Positions 56,556-62,569 are shown, numbered from the stretch's first letter. The stretch: 64,000 nt of DNA from Bacteroidales bacterium (GCA_017523725.1 JAFWVY010000010.1:7367-71366), one strand, 5' to 3'. Notes: generated from the sequence alone by a model not told the origin. A program made the numbers and translations.

Positions 56556-56600
56556 CAAAAAAACGGGCGATGCCACCGGCGCCGTCCGTTTTTTTTTTAT
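56556..56600. terminator. Probable bidirectional terminator between convergent gnd and the S41 protease gene
   Basis: aaaaaaaCGGGCGatgccaccggCGCCGTCCGtttttttttt: an imperfect GC stem flanked by A7 and T10. Confidence 0.45.
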
Positions 56601-56626
56601 CCGTTTCCTGCAGTCCGTGCCGGCCT

Positions 56627-58300
56627 CTACGGCTCCGTCGGCGTTTCCGACGGAACCATATTCTGAAGTTCTTCCAACGCCTTCAGAAAGACGGGATTGG
56701 TTTCGTTGTACAGTTTCCAATAGGCCTCGCTGCCCCACAGGTTGCGCACCAGTGCCTGCTTGATGTACAGAGCCTGGTTTTCCGGGTCTTCCTGCCGGCC
56801 ACCTCTGGGGCGGTTGTCCGTCTGGATTTGCGCCAGCATGTCCGGCGTGATATCCACGTGTCGGATGAAACTGTCGGCGTCTCTGTACTGGCGCAGCCAC
56901 AGGTGGCCGTACCTGTCGATGAGACCGGCCACGGTCTGGTTCAACCATTCTGCATGCCGGGCGTTGTGACGTGCTGCGGACATCGAATCCGGTGCCACGT
57001 AAACATCCGGCAGGATGCCGCCGCCACCGAGCAGTGGCCGCTGCGCAATCAGGCTCCTGTAGGCGGAGGCGGTATCCGGACGATGAGACCAGAAATTGAA
57101 TTCCGCACGGGCATCACGGGAGAAGGCCTCGCGGTTGTAATCCTCCCGCGTGTCCATGTAAGGTTTCTGGATGACACGTCCCGAGGGCGTGTGGTATCGG
57201 GCGACGGTGAGTCGGATCATGCTGCCGTCCTGCAGGACGATCTGACGTTGCACCAGTCCCTTGCCGAAGGTCCGGCGACCTATGAGGATGCCGCGGTCCC
57301 AGTCCTGGATGGCGCCCGCCAGAATCTCGCTGCCCGAGGCAGAGCCTTCGTCAATCATCAGAGCAAGCGCTCCGGAATGGAAAAGTCCGGCCCTGGTGGC
57401 GACGTAATCGGTGCGTTGTTGCCGGTCTCCCTCGGTATACAGAATCAACTGCCCTTCCGAAAGGAATTCGTCGGCTACCTTGACCGCGGCGTCGAGCAGA
57501 CCTCCCGAGTTCTCGCAGATATCCAGGATCAGCCGCTGCATGCCCTGCCATTGCAGACGACCGATGGCCTTGACCATTTCTTCGTAGGTCGTGTTCGAGA
57601 ATCGGGCCAGTTTGATGTAACCGATGGTGGGGGTGACCAAGTAGGCCGCCTCTATGCTTTCGACGGGGATGTTGCTCCGGACAATGGGGATGGACAGCAA
57701 GCGGGAGACATGTTTCCGCTTGATGCCGAGGATGACGCGCGTCCCACGTTCGCCCCGCAGCGTCTGCTGCAGTATGTCCCGGTTCAATGTGCGGCCGGTG
57801 ACAGGCTGCATGTTGACGGTCACGATGCGGTCTCCGATTTGGATGCCGGCCCGGGCTGCCGGTCCGTTCGGCGACAGCGAAACCACCATGGCCGTGTCGC
57901 GGTAGATGGTCGTTGCGATGCCGATTCCCTCGAAGTGCCCCCGCATGGACTCGTTCATGACCCGCGCTTCTTCGCGGCTGAGATAGGACGAGTGCGGATC
58001 GAGCCGCCGCAGCATGTCTCGCAGCGATTCTTCCTCCATGCCGTTCATGTCCAAACTGTCGGCATCCACGTACCAGTTCTGTACGAGGGAAAAGGCCTGG
58101 GCGATTTTGGTTCCGGGGCGCATCTGGAACTGCGGCTGGCGCATCGAGGCTCCTTCGTTGGTCCGTTCATAGGTTTGCGGCGGATACCCGAACGGCGTGA
58201 ATACATTCCGGCCGGACTCCGTTGCCGGGACCTGCGCCTGAACGCAAAGGCCGACAAGCAGCAGACATGTCGCCAGTATGTATGTCATTTCTTTTTTCAT
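56627..58300 (-). CDS. S41-family C-terminal processing peptidase with PDZ domain
   Basis: Signal peptide MKKEMTYILATCLLLVGLCVQAQ. PDZ (GIQIGDRIVTVN). Catalytic Ser in DEGSASGSEI and Lys in RRTFGKGLVQ. Confidence 0.9.
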   Translation of the reverse strand: MKKEMTYILATCLLLVGLCVQAQVPATESGRNVFTPFGYPPQTYERTNEGASMRQPQFQMRPGTKIAQAFSLVQNWYVDADSLDMNGMEEESLRDMLRRLDPHSSYLSREEARVMNESMRGHFEGIGIATTIYRDTAMVVSLSPNGPAARAGIQIGDRIVTVNMQPVTGRTLNRDILQQTLRGERGTRVILGIKRKHVSRLLSIPIVRSNIPVESIEAAYLVTPTIGYIKLARFSNTTYEEMVKAIGRLQWQGMQRLILDICENSGGLLDAAVKVADEFLSEGQLILYTEGDRQQRTDYVATRAGLFHSGALALMIDEGSASGSEILAGAIQDWDRGILIGRRTFGKGLVQRQIVLQDGSMIRLTVARYHTPSGRVIQKPYMDTREDYNREAFSRDARAEFNFWSHRPDTASAYRSLIAQRPLLGGGGILPDVYVAPDSMSAARHNARHAEWLNQTVAGLIDRYGHLWLRQYRDADSFIRHVDITPDMLAQIQTDNRPRGGRQEDPENQALYIKQALVRNLWGSEAYWKLYNETNPVFLKALEELQNMVPSETPTEP

Positions 58301-58306
58301 GATCGT

Positions 58307-58996
58307 TCAGGACAGCCAGTATTGGATATAATAGAAGTCTTCCGGGTACGTCAGTTTCATGTTTGCAGGTTCGCCCCGCACAATGAAGATGGACTCGTCC
58401 GGCAGATATTTTTTCACAATCGAACAATCATCGGTCTGCAGACAGCCGTCGTCGTCCGCCGCACGGGCATAGGCCGCCGCAATGACGCTGCGTCGGAAGG
58501 CCTGCGGGGTCTGGCTGCGCTGCCAGTACTGCCTGGGCGGCACTTCTTCGATGGTTTTTCCGTCCGCATCGGTGCGCATCAGTGTATCCGCCGAAGGCAC
58601 GCAGACGTTCACAGCCCGCCATTGTCCGAGGGCGGCTGTCACGTCGCCGATGATGCGCTGGCTGACCAGCGGACGGGCGGCGTCATGGAAAATCAGGTTG
58701 TCTTCGTCCTCCGTGTAGGCCCGGAGCGCGGCCAGGGTCGAATCACGCCGCGTAGCGCCGCCGGGAATCGTACGGCTCCATTTCCGGTACGTCCCTTTCT
58801 TGCGGAGGTCCTCCATTCGCTTCATGTAGTCCGGGTGGCATACCAGGCAGATCTCGTCTATGGTGCAGTGACGGTCAAAGGCTGCGAGGGCGTATTCCAC
58901 CACAGGGCGGTCTTTCAGCATGGAGAACTGTTTCGGTTCCTCCATGCCGGCGCGTCTGCCCGAACCGGCCGCCAGTATGACTGCGATATTCCTCAT
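58307..58996 (-). CDS. ispD: 2-C-methyl-D-erythritol 4-phosphate cytidylyltransferase
   Basis: MRNIAVILAAGSGRRAG...KQF... and HDAARPL. Confidence 0.93.
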   Translation of the reverse strand: MRNIAVILAAGSGRRAGMEEPKQFSMLKDRPVVEYALAAFDRHCTIDEICLVCHPDYMKRMEDLRKKGTYRKWSRTIPGGATRRDSTLAALRAYTEDEDNLIFHDAARPLVSQRIIGDVTAALGQWRAVNVCVPSADTLMRTDADGKTIEEVPPRQYWQRSQTPQAFRRSVIAAAYARAADDDGCLQTDDCSIVKKYLPDESIFIVRGEPANMKLTYPEDFYYIQYWLS

Positions 58997-59002
58997 GGCT
59001 TG

Positions 59003-62000
59003 TCATCGTCTGGGTCCGCCCATCATGCCGCCGAATCCGCCGCCGAATCCGCCGCCGCCTCTCGGGCCGCCAAATCCACCTCTCTGGTCGTTACCCCATC
59101 CCTGGTTGATAATCCGGATGGAAGTGCTGCCGGCGTCACGACGAACGAACCGCACCGCATCGGCAATCAGGAACCGGAGGCGCGTGTCGTTGGAAAGCAC
59201 GACCTGCGCCGTGTCGGCAGGGAGCACCACCGTCGTCAGGTAGTTCCAACCCGTATAGCAGCGCCGGAATTCCAGCGAGGCCTTCACATCGATGGTGTCG
59301 CCCTGCGTGATGCGAAAGTCGTAGCTCGCATTCCAGTCCATGCCGATGGCATTGTTGTCGCGCCACATGTTGTAATATACATCGTATCTTCCAGCCTCTT
59401 TTATCGGCACTTTCCACGTGGCGGTCTGGCCGCTGATGCCACCGTTGCGTCCCGAACGGATGACATTGGCCGAGCGGACATACTGTCCGTAGTAGAAGTT
59501 GTTGGTGGTCGGCGTCCATTTCAGCGGCGGCCGCCAGGCCGAGAATCCGTGGTATTTGTAGATGGAGGTCTCCTCTTTGGCCAGCCAGCGCGGCAGCAGC
59601 CCGTAAATCCGTGGTTCCGAAGTAGAGAACAATTCCTTGTCTTCGTTGTCCACGATGATCTCGTTCTCGGGCACGAAGTTGACGGCATGTTCTATGGTGA
59701 AAATGCCGGGCTTCCGCAGGTCACGCCGGAGAATACGCCCCCAGTTGTTCAGCGAGGTCTCGATGCGTCCCGGCAGGTTCTCGGAGAGTAATGTCCGGAC
59801 GATGATGGCGCGCGGCCGTTCTTCCGATACGAACACGGCTTCCTTGGTTTCGTGCGGGCCCATCATGACCGGGATGTAATCGATGTCCTCCCAGCCGAAC
59901 TGCAGCATCAGGATAATCATGCCTTCCTTGTCGGAGTCGTTCGTGATAATCTGCGACACTTCGTATTTGACTTCCAGATCCTCGCGCACCCGGTAGAATT
60001 CGGTTTGCGCGAAAAGATAGCGGGGGGCACCTTTGTCGCGGTACCAGCCATCGATCCGGTCCTTGAGGTCCACGCCGGTCGAGTCGGCCAGCCGGTCCAG
60101 AAACTCTTCGAACCGGAGATTCCGGAAAGGATGGGCTGTCACGATGTCGGAGAAAATGTTTTCGAAACTGTCCCGTCCCAACTCCATTTCCCCATAGGCG
60201 AAAAGTTGTTCCGCCTTGAGCTGTATAATGCTGGAAATCAAATCATTTTTGGAAGTATCTGCCACCAGCTCCTCCAGCGACTGCTCCTGCAGCAACAGGC
60301 TGGCCTGCTCCTCGGAACTGATGCCGATGACGTTGCGCCGGAAGTTGTTCGCATTGCCCATCTCATCGCGCTGCATATAGACAGACACCAGCCGGTTGGC
60401 CATCGGGATGTCGGGCGAATAGACATTATAGATAAAGTCGAACAGCTGTGGGAACTGATACCACGGGTTGCCCGACCGTCCGACCGCCACGCCCGCCGAG
60501 GTACGGATTCCTGTCCAGCCCTGCCGTCTTTGGAAGGTGTACAGGAAATTCGTGAAGGCAAACGTCTCCAGTTCTGCCTCCGTTGCCTCGACCCTGCGCC
60601 AGCGTTTTCGCCGTTTGATGTCGGATGTGAAGTCGACGGAATTCATCGAAAACCCTTTCTCCGGGAAGAAGACCATGGACGGCTGCGTCCATTCCCATGC
60701 CTGCGTCCAGGCGCGCGAGTAGGCGGTGAAGGTGCCTGGTACCTCTACCAGCGAGAACCGGTTGTACTGGTACGGCAGCGCGTTTTCACGCTCGAAGTCT
60801 TCCATGCTCTCCTCGATGAGTGTCGGAATGTCGCCCTTGATGCTGTCCAGCATGTGCCGGAAGAAGTCGTGGCCCTTGATATAGTAGAGTTCGTAACTGA
60901 GCCCCGCCGTATCGACCGCCAGGTATTCGTAGTCGCCGATGACCAGTGAAATCTGCGGCAGCGGTGTTTCAGGACAGAAACGATACCATCCGTCACCGGC
61001 CTCCGAATAGGCACCCTGCACGATGGCCATCTGGCCTTCAACGGGTTTCACTTTGACGTCGAAATCGCTGAAGAAGGCCTGCTGCCAGTCCGAATGGAAC
61101 ATCGTGAACGACGTTCCCGCTCTTGGATACCAGTAGGTTTCGGGAGTCAGCATACAGAAATCTGGTCCCAGGAAAGCGTATTTCTTCGGAATCTTCACCA
61201 TGTTGATCTGCTGGCGGGCATCACGGACGGCATCCGGCATGTCGAGGTAGCACAGATTCTCATCTATGCCGCCGTTGTAGCGGATGGTCAGCTGCACCGT
61301 GTCGGAGGTCCGCAGTGTCCGGCCGAAGTCTACCAGCAGCAGCTGGCGCTTTCGCTCGAATGCCACCGGCATGCCGTCCGAAGTCACCTCCGATACGGTC
61401 AGACCGGGGTTCAGACAGAATACGAACGTGGTCGAGTCGCGTCGCGGCACGGCGGTCATGTCGGCCTTGACATCAATGGCTTCGGGCAGTTGTTCCACCT
61501 CCATGTCGTATGACAGCACCGACAGTATGGGGTAGTGGCCGTACGTGTCGTTCAGCAGAATCAGTTCGGCTCGTTCATGCTTGCCAGACTGTACGCCCTG
61601 GATGTGCCGCATGCCGATCTGTCCGGCCGCGGCCAGCAGGACGAGCGCACCGGCCAGCCAGATGTAACGCATGCGCGGGTTGGCCGGCAACCGGGCGAAG
61701 AGGAACACCGTCAGGAATACAAACGCAACGCCGGCGAGCAGGTACATCACCCGGAGTGCGATGATGGTCTCCATGCCCGTGAATCCGGTGATGGTCGATT
61801 TGAACATCGGCAGACTGTAAGCCATGTAGTCGAACAGGTAGTAATACTTGTCCTGCAGGTAGAACAGCGAGTACATGATGTACCCCAGCAGCACGATGAA
61901 CGTCAGGGCCTGGTTCTTGAGCAACAGCATCATGAAGAACGACAGACCCATGATGAAGATCAGCGTCGGGATACTGATCAGCAGGAAATAGACTATGTAC

Positions 62001-62437
62001 GACGAAAAATCGATATAGGTGTTCACTGCCGTCAGGTTGAAGATGAATCCGACAGCCAGTACGATGAGGTTCAGCAGCAGAAACACCCGCAGGTTGCCCC
62101 AGGTCTTGCCGAATACGTACTCTGCGTTACTGAGCGGCCGGACATAAAACACTTCCGAGGTGTCCAGCTGTTTGTCGCGCTTGATGAATTCCGACGACAG
62201 GAACACCGCGATGATGGCCTGTGCTACGTTCAGCATCAGGATGTTCATGTACGGGATGGTGGACGGGACCGCACGGTACACCCACGGCGACCCGCCGGTG
62301 TCGGTGAGTTGTGCCATGTCGTAGAACAGGATGACCGCGATGGCCAGAAAACTGAATAGCTTGAAGAACCAGCTGCGGGTCAGCAATTTGCTCTCGTAGC
62401 GCGCAACGGACAATATGTTATGGATCGTCGTCCACAT
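59003..62437 (-). CDS. Large membrane protein: N-terminal ABC-2-type-permease-like polytopic domain, central M1-aminopeptidase-like region lacking the zinc motif, golvesin-C-terminal-like domain, Gly/Arg-rich tail
   Basis: About 7 TM helices in the first ~290 aa. LTPETYWYPRAG recalls the M1 N-domain. No HEXXH or GAMEN anywhere (checked by eye). GQTATWKVPIKEAGRYDVYYNMW...FLIADAVRFV fits the golvesin-like pattern. The tail is QRGGFGGPRGGGGFGGGFGGMMGGPRR. The track start 62452 is TTG; ATG 62437 (MWTTIHN...) is preferred. Confidence 0.8.
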   Translation of the reverse strand: MWTTIHNILSVARYESKLLTRSWFFKLFSFLAIAVILFYDMAQLTDTGGSPWVYRAVPSTIPYMNILMLNVAQAIIAVFLSSEFIKRDKQLDTSEVFYVRPLSNAEYVFGKTWGNLRVFLLLNLIVLAVGFIFNLTAVNTYIDFSSYIVYFLLISIPTLIFIMGLSFFMMLLLKNQALTFIVLLGYIMYSLFYLQDKYYYLFDYMAYSLPMFKSTITGFTGMETIIALRVMYLLAGVAFVFLTVFLFARLPANPRMRYIWLAGALVLLAAAGQIGMRHIQGVQSGKHERAELILLNDTYGHYPILSVLSYDMEVEQLPEAIDVKADMTAVPRRDSTTFVFCLNPGLTVSEVTSDGMPVAFERKRQLLLVDFGRTLRTSDTVQLTIRYNGGIDENLCYLDMPDAVRDARQQINMVKIPKKYAFLGPDFCMLTPETYWYPRAGTSFTMFHSDWQQAFFSDFDVKVKPVEGQMAIVQGAYSEAGDGWYRFCPETPLPQISLVIGDYEYLAVDTAGLSYELYYIKGHDFFRHMLDSIKGDIPTLIEESMEDFERENALPYQYNRFSLVEVPGTFTAYSRAWTQAWEWTQPSMVFFPEKGFSMNSVDFTSDIKRRKRWRRVEATEAELETFAFTNFLYTFQRRQGWTGIRTSAGVAVGRSGNPWYQFPQLFDFIYNVYSPDIPMANRLVSVYMQRDEMGNANNFRRNVIGISSEEQASLLLQEQSLEELVADTSKNDLISSIIQLKAEQLFAYGEMELGRDSFENIFSDIVTAHPFRNLRFEEFLDRLADSTGVDLKDRIDGWYRDKGAPRYLFAQTEFYRVREDLEVKYEVSQIITNDSDKEGMIILMLQFGWEDIDYIPVMMGPHETKEAVFVSEERPRAIIVRTLLSENLPGRIETSLNNWGRILRRDLRKPGIFTIEHAVNFVPENEIIVDNEDKELFSTSEPRIYGLLPRWLAKEETSIYKYHGFSAWRPPLKWTPTTNNFYYGQYVRSANVIRSGRNGGISGQTATWKVPIKEAGRYDVYYNMWRDNNAIGMDWNASYDFRITQGDTIDVKASLEFRRCYTGWNYLTTVVLPADTAQVVLSNDTRLRFLIADAVRFVRRDAGSTSIRIINQGWGNDQRGGFGGPRGGGGFGGGFGGMMGGPRR
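59027..59062 (-). repeat. 12-bp tandem coding repeat (gccgccgaatcc x2 plus a degenerate third unit) encoding the GFGG tail
   Basis: Units 59027..59038 and 59039..59050 are identical. 59051..59062 is diverged. Confidence 0.7.
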
Positions 62438-62526
62438 GGTCTTGTCAGGCAAAATGCCCCGCCGAATGAGAGGGGCGAAATCTTATCTTACTATTAATCA
62501 GTATATTAAATTATATATAAAGCGGA

Positions 62527-62534
62527 CAAAATTA
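62527..62534 (-). promoter_or_regulatory. Putative -7 box (TAATTTTG) for the large membrane protein-ispD-S41 unit
   Basis: Plus strand caaaatta. Exact TAnnTTTG in the AT-rich spacer, immediately downstream of the dnaG terminator. Confidence 0.4.
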
Positions 62535-62537
62535 GCA

Positions 62538-62569
62538 AGAAAAAGACGCCCTGCCAAGTGTCGGGCGTC
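62538..62569 (-). terminator. Rho-independent terminator after dnaG
   Basis: 7-bp stem GACGCCC/GGGCGTC with an 11-nt loop, followed on the minus strand by TTTTTCTT. Confidence 0.55.

Follow-up and report, generated by a model that had tools for sequence, protein, structure and literature searches.

Envelope proteins of the kinds considered here are already known, namely ABC-2 exporters with periplasmic modules and pseudo-enzymes derived from peptidases. In the NosDFY system the ABC-2 permease NosY (Protein Data Bank, PDB, entries 7o0y, 7o12 and 7znq) works next to a large periplasmic β-helix protein, NosD, and Mueller et al. are said to have found in 2022 that NosFY acts on NosD and transports no solute. 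The M1 zinc aminopeptidases, such as ERAP1, IRAP, aminopeptidase N and tricorn factor F3, use the glutamate of their GxMEN motif to hold the free N-terminus (the N-terminal amine) of the substrate. Bacteroidota also possess 'ABC transporter permease/M1 family aminopeptidase' fusions, which keep the zinc motif and are not known to carry a Golvesin_C module. The protein described here carries an ABC-2 permease domain, an M1-like region and a Golvesin_C module in one chain. Its gene lies on the minus strand of a 64,000-nucleotide stretch of DNA from a Bacteroidales bacterium (GCA_017523725.1, JAFWVY010000010.1:7367-71366). This whole stretch is called the window below, and nucleotide positions are counted from its first letter (Table 1).

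The window protein is a member of a large, uncharacterized Bacteroidales family. An earlier note, made from the DNA sequence alone, had described a membrane protein of about 1145 residues and had quoted several strings from it. The open reading frame (ORF) is intact, its product has 1144 residues, and all of the strings (LTPETYWYPRAG, TATWKV, AGRYDVYY and ADAVRFV) are present. The product is 100% identical to NCBI entry MBR3286386.1, from an uncultured Bacteroidales metagenome-assembled genome (MAG). At least 1278 relatives were found at 90% clustering, and the closest of them share 41-53% identity with the window protein across everything except the tail (96% of its length). When residues 300-920 were searched against 1.84 billion representative proteins, 974 relatives were obtained at E ≤ 1e-3, of which 353 also passed E ≤ 1e-30. 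Among the best 150 of these 974, the M1-like region occupies residues ~300-920 wherever the protein is complete (~1100 residues), the few others being shorter fragments. The hosts include Parabacteroides, Bacteroides, Phocaeicola, Tannerella forsythia, Dysgonomonadaceae, Prolixibacteraceae and Draconibacterium. The combination of domains had been thought undescribed; indeed no paper on it was found, but it is far from rare: a scan with a single genome for each species turned up relatives in at least 548 species, and the representative clusters number about 970. NCBI labels the proteins 'golvesin C-terminal-like domain-containing protein' or 'xanthan lyase' and has no NCBIfam model for the family. 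Parabacteroides johnsonii P0052 and Bacteroides bouchesdurhonensis P0102 have the same four-part architecture and invariant motifs as the window protein. Unlike such members, the window copy is relocated, has neither an adjacent ATPase nor adjacent TolC-MFP-RND genes (described below), and carries an extra Gly/Arg tail.

The M1-like region was identified from a model of the whole protein, predicted by AlphaFold2 (AF2) from a 50-sequence alignment (mean pLDDT 80.8, pTM 0.75). All of the top 50 PDB matches of this model in Foldseek are M1 aminopeptidases. They comprise IRAP, ERAP1, ERAP2, aminopeptidase N (APN), PSA and F3, with E-values down to 3e-17 (IRAP/ERAP1) and alignments of ~620 columns at 11-13% identity. 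A search of viral structures again gave an M1-like aminopeptidase as the best match. The predicted structure thus bears out the M1 fold suspected in the earlier note and supports the presence of MEROPS M1 domains I-III (a β saddle, a thermolysin-like domain and a β sandwich). The borders between the domains were placed from the secondary structure of the model. No helical domain IV follows the domain III-like sandwich.

Several observations suggest that the likeness reflects homology to M1 peptidases and not only a similar fold. Pfam Peptidase_M1 does not match the window protein, although it matches 14 of the 36 relatives that were scanned with Pfam, weakly (best E 2.9e-4). A profile of the family matches ERAP1, APN, PSA and F3 at E-values of 0.005-0.2, in the C-terminal half of the catalytic domain; the ERAP1 match (E 0.005) covers residues 428-512 of that enzyme. 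Furthermore, two distant members, P0277 and P0303, have GAMEN and GSMEN, respectively, in the block of columns that reads QAQET in the family consensus and QAWEW in the window protein. QAWEW is therefore a recognizable remnant of the exopeptidase motif. The statement in the earlier note that GAMEN is absent is literally true, but it misses this remnant, in which the Glu is kept. No true M1 gene with GxMEN, which might have served as a bridge for the alignment, was present in any of the retrieved family loci.

The zinc site of the M1 enzymes has been lost, as the earlier note had proposed from the window protein. HEXXH, HXXEH, an H...H pair and GxMEN are all missing from this protein, which contains 11 His residues in total, and HEXXH is absent from the catalytic-domain region of all 149 representatives checked, including those that carry GAMEN or GSMEN. 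Conservation was counted in an alignment of 133 diverse members. Within residues 523-803 the sole conserved His is H523, which is situated at the border between domains I and II. The catalytic Tyr438 of ERAP1 is aligned by the profile with a Ser in the family consensus and with a Gln in the window protein, and column 739 contains Lys, Gln, Arg or Ser. HEXXH-X18-E, GxMEN and the catalytic Tyr, the features of M1 according to MEROPS, are thus all lacking in the window protein.

The acidic residues of the region are well conserved. In the near-invariant TPETYWYP motif E433 is retained in 124/133 members, W436 in 133/133 and P438 in 131/133; P567 and P586 are likewise present in every sequence. 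E565 and E593 are each retained in 129 of the 133. The column of E582, the Glu of the GAMEN remnant, has Glu in 98 members and Asp in 15. The conservation of these glutamates, together with the absence of HEXXH from the 149 representatives, indicates that the module derives from an M1 peptidase and has no zinc site but retains a part of the acidic pocket (E433, E582, E565 and E593). Compared with M1 aminopeptidases, the window protein shares domains I-III and the Glu of GxMEN, but has no HEXXH-E, catalytic Tyr or domain IV, and it is fused to a permease and to a module resembling a carbohydrate-binding module (CBM). The Bacteroidota permease/M1 fusions, compared by their description only, have the same domain order, ABC-2 and then M1-type.

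Columns 316 and 365, in domain I (nucleotides ~61490 and ~61343), are occupied by His in 95/133 and 84/133 members of the wider family, respectively. In the window protein and in its relatives among the Bacteroidales, Gln stands at both positions, and the two columns appear to change jointly. H523 is retained in 110/133 members. Together with H523, columns 316 and 365 may form a secondary metal or hydrogen-bond site.

The N-terminal part of the protein is composed of an amphipathic helix and seven hydrophobic helices, which lie inside residues 24-276 according to both hydropathy and the AF2 model. Lys and Arg number 13 in the N-terminus and the loops between transmembrane (TM) helices 2-3, 4-5 and 6-7, compared to 4 on the opposite side. 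By the positive-inside rule, the N-terminus is inferred to be cytoplasmic, and the C-terminal ~870 residues would be in the periplasm. A separate AF2 model of residues 1-300 was made for a Foldseek search of the membrane domain. Its best PDB match is NosY of NosDFY (7o0y, E 5e-4, TM-score 0.5-0.6), followed by PmtCD, ABCG25, Wzm and ABCG2, and these matches support the assignment of the domain to the ABC-2 (type V exporter) fold, which has an N-terminal amphipathic helix and a core of six helices. Pfam ABC2_membrane_2 matches the window protein at residues 48-250 (E 0.0067) and all 36 of the relatives scanned (best E 2.8e-7), so that the permease suggested in the earlier note is found throughout this sample. 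JGI gives the NosY COG name to one of the relatives. Like NosY, the window protein is an ABC-2 permease with a large periplasmic partner. Unlike in NosDFY, however, the periplasmic module is M1-like instead of a β-helix, is fused to the permease through TM7, and has no link to nitrous oxide reductase.

No segment of the protein, or of the family, is more conserved than the cytoplasmic loop between TM2 and TM3. In type V ABC exporters the ATPase docks on the equivalent loop and on the N-terminal helix. By analogy, the loop is inferred to be an element for coupling to, or docking of, an ATPase. This loop of the window protein and the consensus of the canonical relatives share 88% identity, a level also seen in relatives that have an adjacent ATPase, and the N-terminal helix is 73% identical to the consensus, inside the canonical range.

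The periplasmic part ends in a β-sandwich. Pfam Golvesin_C (PF25275) matches residues 973-1099 of the window protein (E 5.5e-7) and all 36 scanned relatives, with a best E-value of 3e-17, in accordance with the golvesin-like pattern that had been recognized in the sequence. The InterPro name of the domain is CBM6-CBM35-CBM36_like_2. The family profile also finds 6f2p, a Paenibacillus xanthan lyase, where it matches the C-terminal module (residues 930-1038; E 5e-6). A review describes that terminal module as an extra, unclassified one that binds xanthan (PMC10881899), and Cbeg4 and Cbeg5 of Bacteroides, which carry the same domain, have been reported to be lectins (PMC9166713). In contrast to these proteins, in the window protein the sandwich terminates a membrane-anchored periplasmic assembly. 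The similarity to the accessory module of 6f2p is the origin of the misleading name 'xanthan lyase' in NCBI.

The Gly/Arg tail noted earlier is real and is predicted to be disordered. A 12-nucleotide tandem repeat (59027-59057) encodes a part of it. The tail occurs only in the 90% cluster of the window protein itself, that is, in 4 of 127 full-length relatives, and it varies among those four.

Most family members are encoded in a locus with a fixed gene order: an ABC ATPase, the family protein, a TolC-like outer membrane factor (OMF), a membrane fusion protein (MFP), an RND permease, a second RND permease fused to an ABC ATPase (RND::ABC), and a small polytopic protein. Where enough DNA was available, an ABC ATPase of ~300 residues is immediately upstream in 76/76 loci and the OMF is downstream in 72/73; the MFP and RND genes come next in 62/62. 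Even P0277, a relative with only 33% identity, has this locus, including the upstream ATPase. The lack of a partner ATPase reported in the earlier note thus applies to the 64-kb window, but not to the relatives. The ATPase of the cluster belongs to the DrrA/GldA/NodI type, as is usual in ABC-2 systems.

For the two RND genes the highest scores come from generic multidrug RND permease models, and the next from CusA/CzcA, MdtC and MdtB/MuxB. The arrangement recalls MdtABC, where two RND genes share one MFP. The ABC ATPase at the C-terminus of the second RND protein is part of a single ORF of ~1550-1610 residues (ACR_tran plus ABC_tran) in many independent assemblies. We know of no description of such an RND-ABC fusion. 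A search with the RND-fused ATPase returned mostly fragments at contig ends, and one of the matches gave the end of the cluster. There, a 238-residue polytopic protein without a Pfam or NCBIfam match may be a second ABC-2-like permease.

The window copy is not in this locus. Its neighbors are the 3' part of dnaG upstream and ispD and an S41 peptidase gene downstream (dnaG-X-ispD-S41, where X is the gene described here), and the window-type copy in MAG GCA_024699385.1 has the same context. Every MAG with the window protein also has a second family member, P0002, with 53% identity, as judged from the NCBI accession series. In a distance tree the window protein and P0002 are sisters, and the next branch is P0004, which keeps the canonical locus. 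Both sisters are on long branches, the window protein being the slower-evolving of the two. The window copy is therefore a relocated, diverged paralog, and both paralogs are out of the canonical locus. As P0004 has retained that locus, the missing ATPase is a derived trait of this lineage and not of the family. The gene is under purifying selection and is not decaying. It differs from the copy in a second MAG (L090) by 46 synonymous and 4 non-synonymous substitutions, a ratio of non-synonymous to synonymous rates (dN/dS) of 0.026, and it has the family residue at all of the invariant columns of the 50-sequence alignment. On this ratio a pseudogene was rejected.

The reading that we favor, and consider somewhat more probable than not, is that of a functional inner-membrane permease joined to a pseudo-M1 and a CBM-like module, served by an ATPase in trans and having a ligand-binding role. 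The permease would dimerize with, and be driven by, an ATPase of the DrrA/GldA type encoded elsewhere in the genome; the conservation of the TM2-TM3 loop, by analogy with type V exporters, suggests that such an ATPase still drives the protein. TM7 and the stalk would relay movements powered by ATP to the pseudo-peptidase in the periplasm, much as NosFY acts on NosD and as further ABC systems perform mechanical work. The pseudo-peptidase would bind its ligand by the retained acidic pocket without cleaving it, and the simplest guess for this ligand, given the retained Glu of GAMEN, is the free N-terminus of a peptide. The CBM-like module would hold the assembly on a glycan, which may be a polymer of the envelope or the substrate itself. 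In the canonical locus the complex would serve the neighboring RND/TolC exporter by catching a substrate in the periplasm or outer leaflet or by bringing it into position. The identity of the protein and its genomic context are far more secure than this mechanism.

A number of findings weigh against this proposal. The window protein scores under the Pfam gathering cut-off both for ABC2_membrane_2 and for Golvesin_C (30.1 bits compared to 31.6 for the latter), and a sub-profile of residues 300-725 had no match in the PDB at E ≤ 10. The equivalence of E582 to the Glu of GAMEN has the family alignment as its sole basis; E433 is only a candidate for the domain I Glu that also contacts the N-terminus in M1 enzymes. 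The transmission of movement is drawn by analogy with NosDFY, to which the TM-score is only ~0.5-0.6. A query with the family ATPase had no tblastn match in the whole 64-kb window, and ATPase, OMF, MFP and RND genes were not found near either paralog in the window and two other contigs. Finally, no paper was found on the family, its locus, M1/ABC permease fusions, or a xanthan lyase combined with efflux in Bacteroides.

The absence of all these partners is what a different explanation would predict, namely that in this lineage the protein works independently of any ATPase and the permease domain serves only to anchor a binding or scaffold module in the periplasm to the membrane. It would account for the loss of the neighboring genes from both paralogs and fits their long branches. 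However, an anchor would not need cytoplasmic motifs, and the TM2-TM3 loop and the N-terminal helix are kept at 88% and 73% identity to the consensus; the dN/dS of 0.026 extends over the whole gene. This explanation is therefore rather improbable. Neither does the evidence point to decay into a functionless duplicate. The gene is out of the operon, is a diverged paralog and has a variable low-complexity tail, but an intact ORF of 3.4 kb, the low dN/dS, the preserved invariant columns and an evolution slower than that of the paralog make decay very improbable. Still less credible is the activity implied by the NCBI name, that of a xanthan lyase or another polysaccharide lyase. Besides the name, it has in its favor the family-profile match to 6f2p, although this match is confined to the accessory module and lies outside the PL8 catalytic domains. 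Pfam gave no lyase family for the window protein or the 36 relatives, and the reading as a lyase is effectively refuted.

The M1-like module could, alternatively, still be an enzyme with a non-canonical site made of E433, Y556, E565, E582 and E593, perhaps with a differently ligated metal, which would process periplasmic peptides or amide or ester bonds. These five residues are kept in 98-129 of the 133 diverged relatives, which is more than a scaffold seems to need, and columns 316, 365 and 523 are mostly His in the wider family. Yet none of the members examined has any of the three canonical zinc ligands or the catalytic Tyr, and both the window protein and its relatives in the Bacteroidales have Gln in place of His at columns 316 and 365. 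To our knowledge, no M1 enzyme works without the HEXXH-E site, which also counts against residual catalysis, and we consider it unlikely. A similarly low probability is given to a wider reading of all the parts as one hybrid envelope machine. In it, a type V motor would drive a pseudo-aminopeptidase 'receiver', which would grip free N-termini or another amine ligand and pass cargo to an exporter with TolC and two RND proteins, one of them with the fused ABC ATPase; in the lineage of the window the receiver would have been freed and duplicated, and the S41 peptidase would trim the Gly/Arg tail.

If the favored assignment, a permease with a catalytically dead M1 module, is true, it would correct the 'xanthan lyase' annotation and provide a clear bacterial case of a pseudo-enzyme derived from a peptidase. 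It would also reveal an unstudied envelope system of seven genes, with two ABC modules, two RND pumps, an MFP and an OMF. The main interest lies in the family and this locus rather than in the window copy. The family is large and deeply conserved, and it has members in Bacteroides and Parabacteroides that are common in the human gut, in Tannerella forsythia and in numerous environmental Bacteroidales, where the system could bear on efflux, on tolerance of bile or peptides, and on envelope biogenesis. The relocated paralogs are a natural test of whether the module works apart from the seven-gene system.

Table 1. Coordinates of the gene, of the parts of its product and of related features. Nucleotide positions refer to the window unless a contig label (L004, L089, L091 or L173) is given.
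Feature	Residues	Nucleotides	Strand	Evidence or remarks
Coding sequence of the 1144-residue protein	1-1144	59003-62437	-	Intact ORF, ATG start; stop codon 59003-59005
N-terminal amphipathic helix and seven TM helices, ABC-2 (type V exporter) permease domain	1-276	61610-62437	-	Hydropathy, AF2, Foldseek, Pfam
Cytoplasmic TM2-TM3 loop, KRDKQLDTSEVFYVRPLSNAEY	85-117	62087-62185	-	Most conserved segment; invariant columns
Continuation of TM7, long helical stalk into the periplasm (predicted)	277-303	61529-61609	-	AF2 helix 254-299
All-β domain, M1 domain I-like	304-522	60872-61528	-	DSSP, Foldseek; approximate borders
Near-invariant TPETYWYP motif in the domain I-like part	431-438	61124-61147	-	
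Homolog of the thermolysin-like catalytic domain, without zinc ligands	523-803	60029-60871	-	
QAWEW, remnant of GxMEN	579-583	60689-60703	-	Family alignment
β-sandwich, M1 domain III-like	804-920	59678-60028	-	DSSP, Foldseek aligned length
Golvesin_C / CBM6-CBM35-CBM36_like_2-type β-sandwich	973-1102	59132-59521	-	Pfam, family profile
Disordered Gly/Arg/Phe-rich tail, lineage-specific	1103-1144 (42 residues)	59006-59131	-	pLDDT 25-43
ispD (methylerythritol phosphate pathway cytidylyltransferase)		58307-58996	-	6 nucleotides 3' of the gene; Pfam IspD E 2.6e-47
S41 C-terminal processing peptidase, with PDZ and N-terminal signal-like segment		56627-58300	-	6 nucleotides 3' of ispD
Signals between dnaG and the gene		62510-62569	-	Sequence reading and consensus scan; consensus matches only
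P0002-type paralog, no tail	1090 residues	L089 2859-6131 (GCA_024699385.1 contig 22)		Between a PLP (pyridoxal phosphate) enzyme gene and ruvA-sprA
RND::ABC fusion genes		L004 19043-23348; L091 7035-11959; L173 19290-23321		
Polytopic protein without Pfam or NCBIfam match	238 residues	L091 11956-12672		Overlaps the upstream RND::ABC gene by 4 nucleotides
NagX-like transmembrane acetyltransferase		L091 12789-13910		Second gene after RND::ABC

The gene heads a tight unit of three genes, as had been seen earlier. Between dnaG and the gene there is a terminator-like hairpin (GACGCCC...GGGCGTC) with a T run at 62540-62569, 3' of dnaG. It is followed, in an AT-rich stretch, by a candidate promoter, TTGCTA-17-TATAAT, at 62510-62538, and a promoter-like motif, TAATTTTG, is at 62527-62534; both are consensus matches. 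This order of a hairpin and then promoter-like motifs suggests that the gene, ispD and the S41 gene form a short unit of their own. A TTG codon located five codons 5' of the ATG is an alternative start, but the N-termini of homologs agree with the ATG. The ispD product scores 181.4 bits with TIGR00453, exceeding the cut-off of the model. The S41 peptidase matches Pfam Peptidase_S41 (E 4.7e-45) as well as PDZ, and TIGR00225 at 256.7 bits. As with the ATPase, tblastn searches of the window found no OMF, MFP or RND genes.

The linkage to ispD and the S41 gene, whose synteny the earlier note had proposed to check, turned out to be restricted to this species (contigs L090 and L093). The surroundings of 79 other S41 relatives (at most 44% identical), taken to 8 kb, contained neither ispD nor dnaG nor a family member. 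A functional link between the family protein and these two genes thus has little support, and coupling to ispD was rejected. The tail was gained in the same lineage in which the gene of the tail-specific-type S41 protease shares the predicted transcription unit; the two may be a substrate-protease pair or a coincidence. The sprA gene beside the P0002-type paralog is a gene of the translocon of the type IX secretion system.

Two loci of relatives show further peculiarities. Among the 73 loci, only that of a Tannerella sp. MAG (L043) lacks an OMF gene after the family member. Bacteroides bouchesdurhonensis encodes a further large Golvesin_C protein (more than 968 residues), on the minus strand ~7 kb upstream of the cluster (L006, 1-2495). 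In the window itself, a 1073-residue antisense ORF on the plus strand (56570-59791) crosses the S41 gene, ispD and the 3' end of the gene described here. Lying over three conserved genes in a region of ~58-60% GC, it is most likely spurious.

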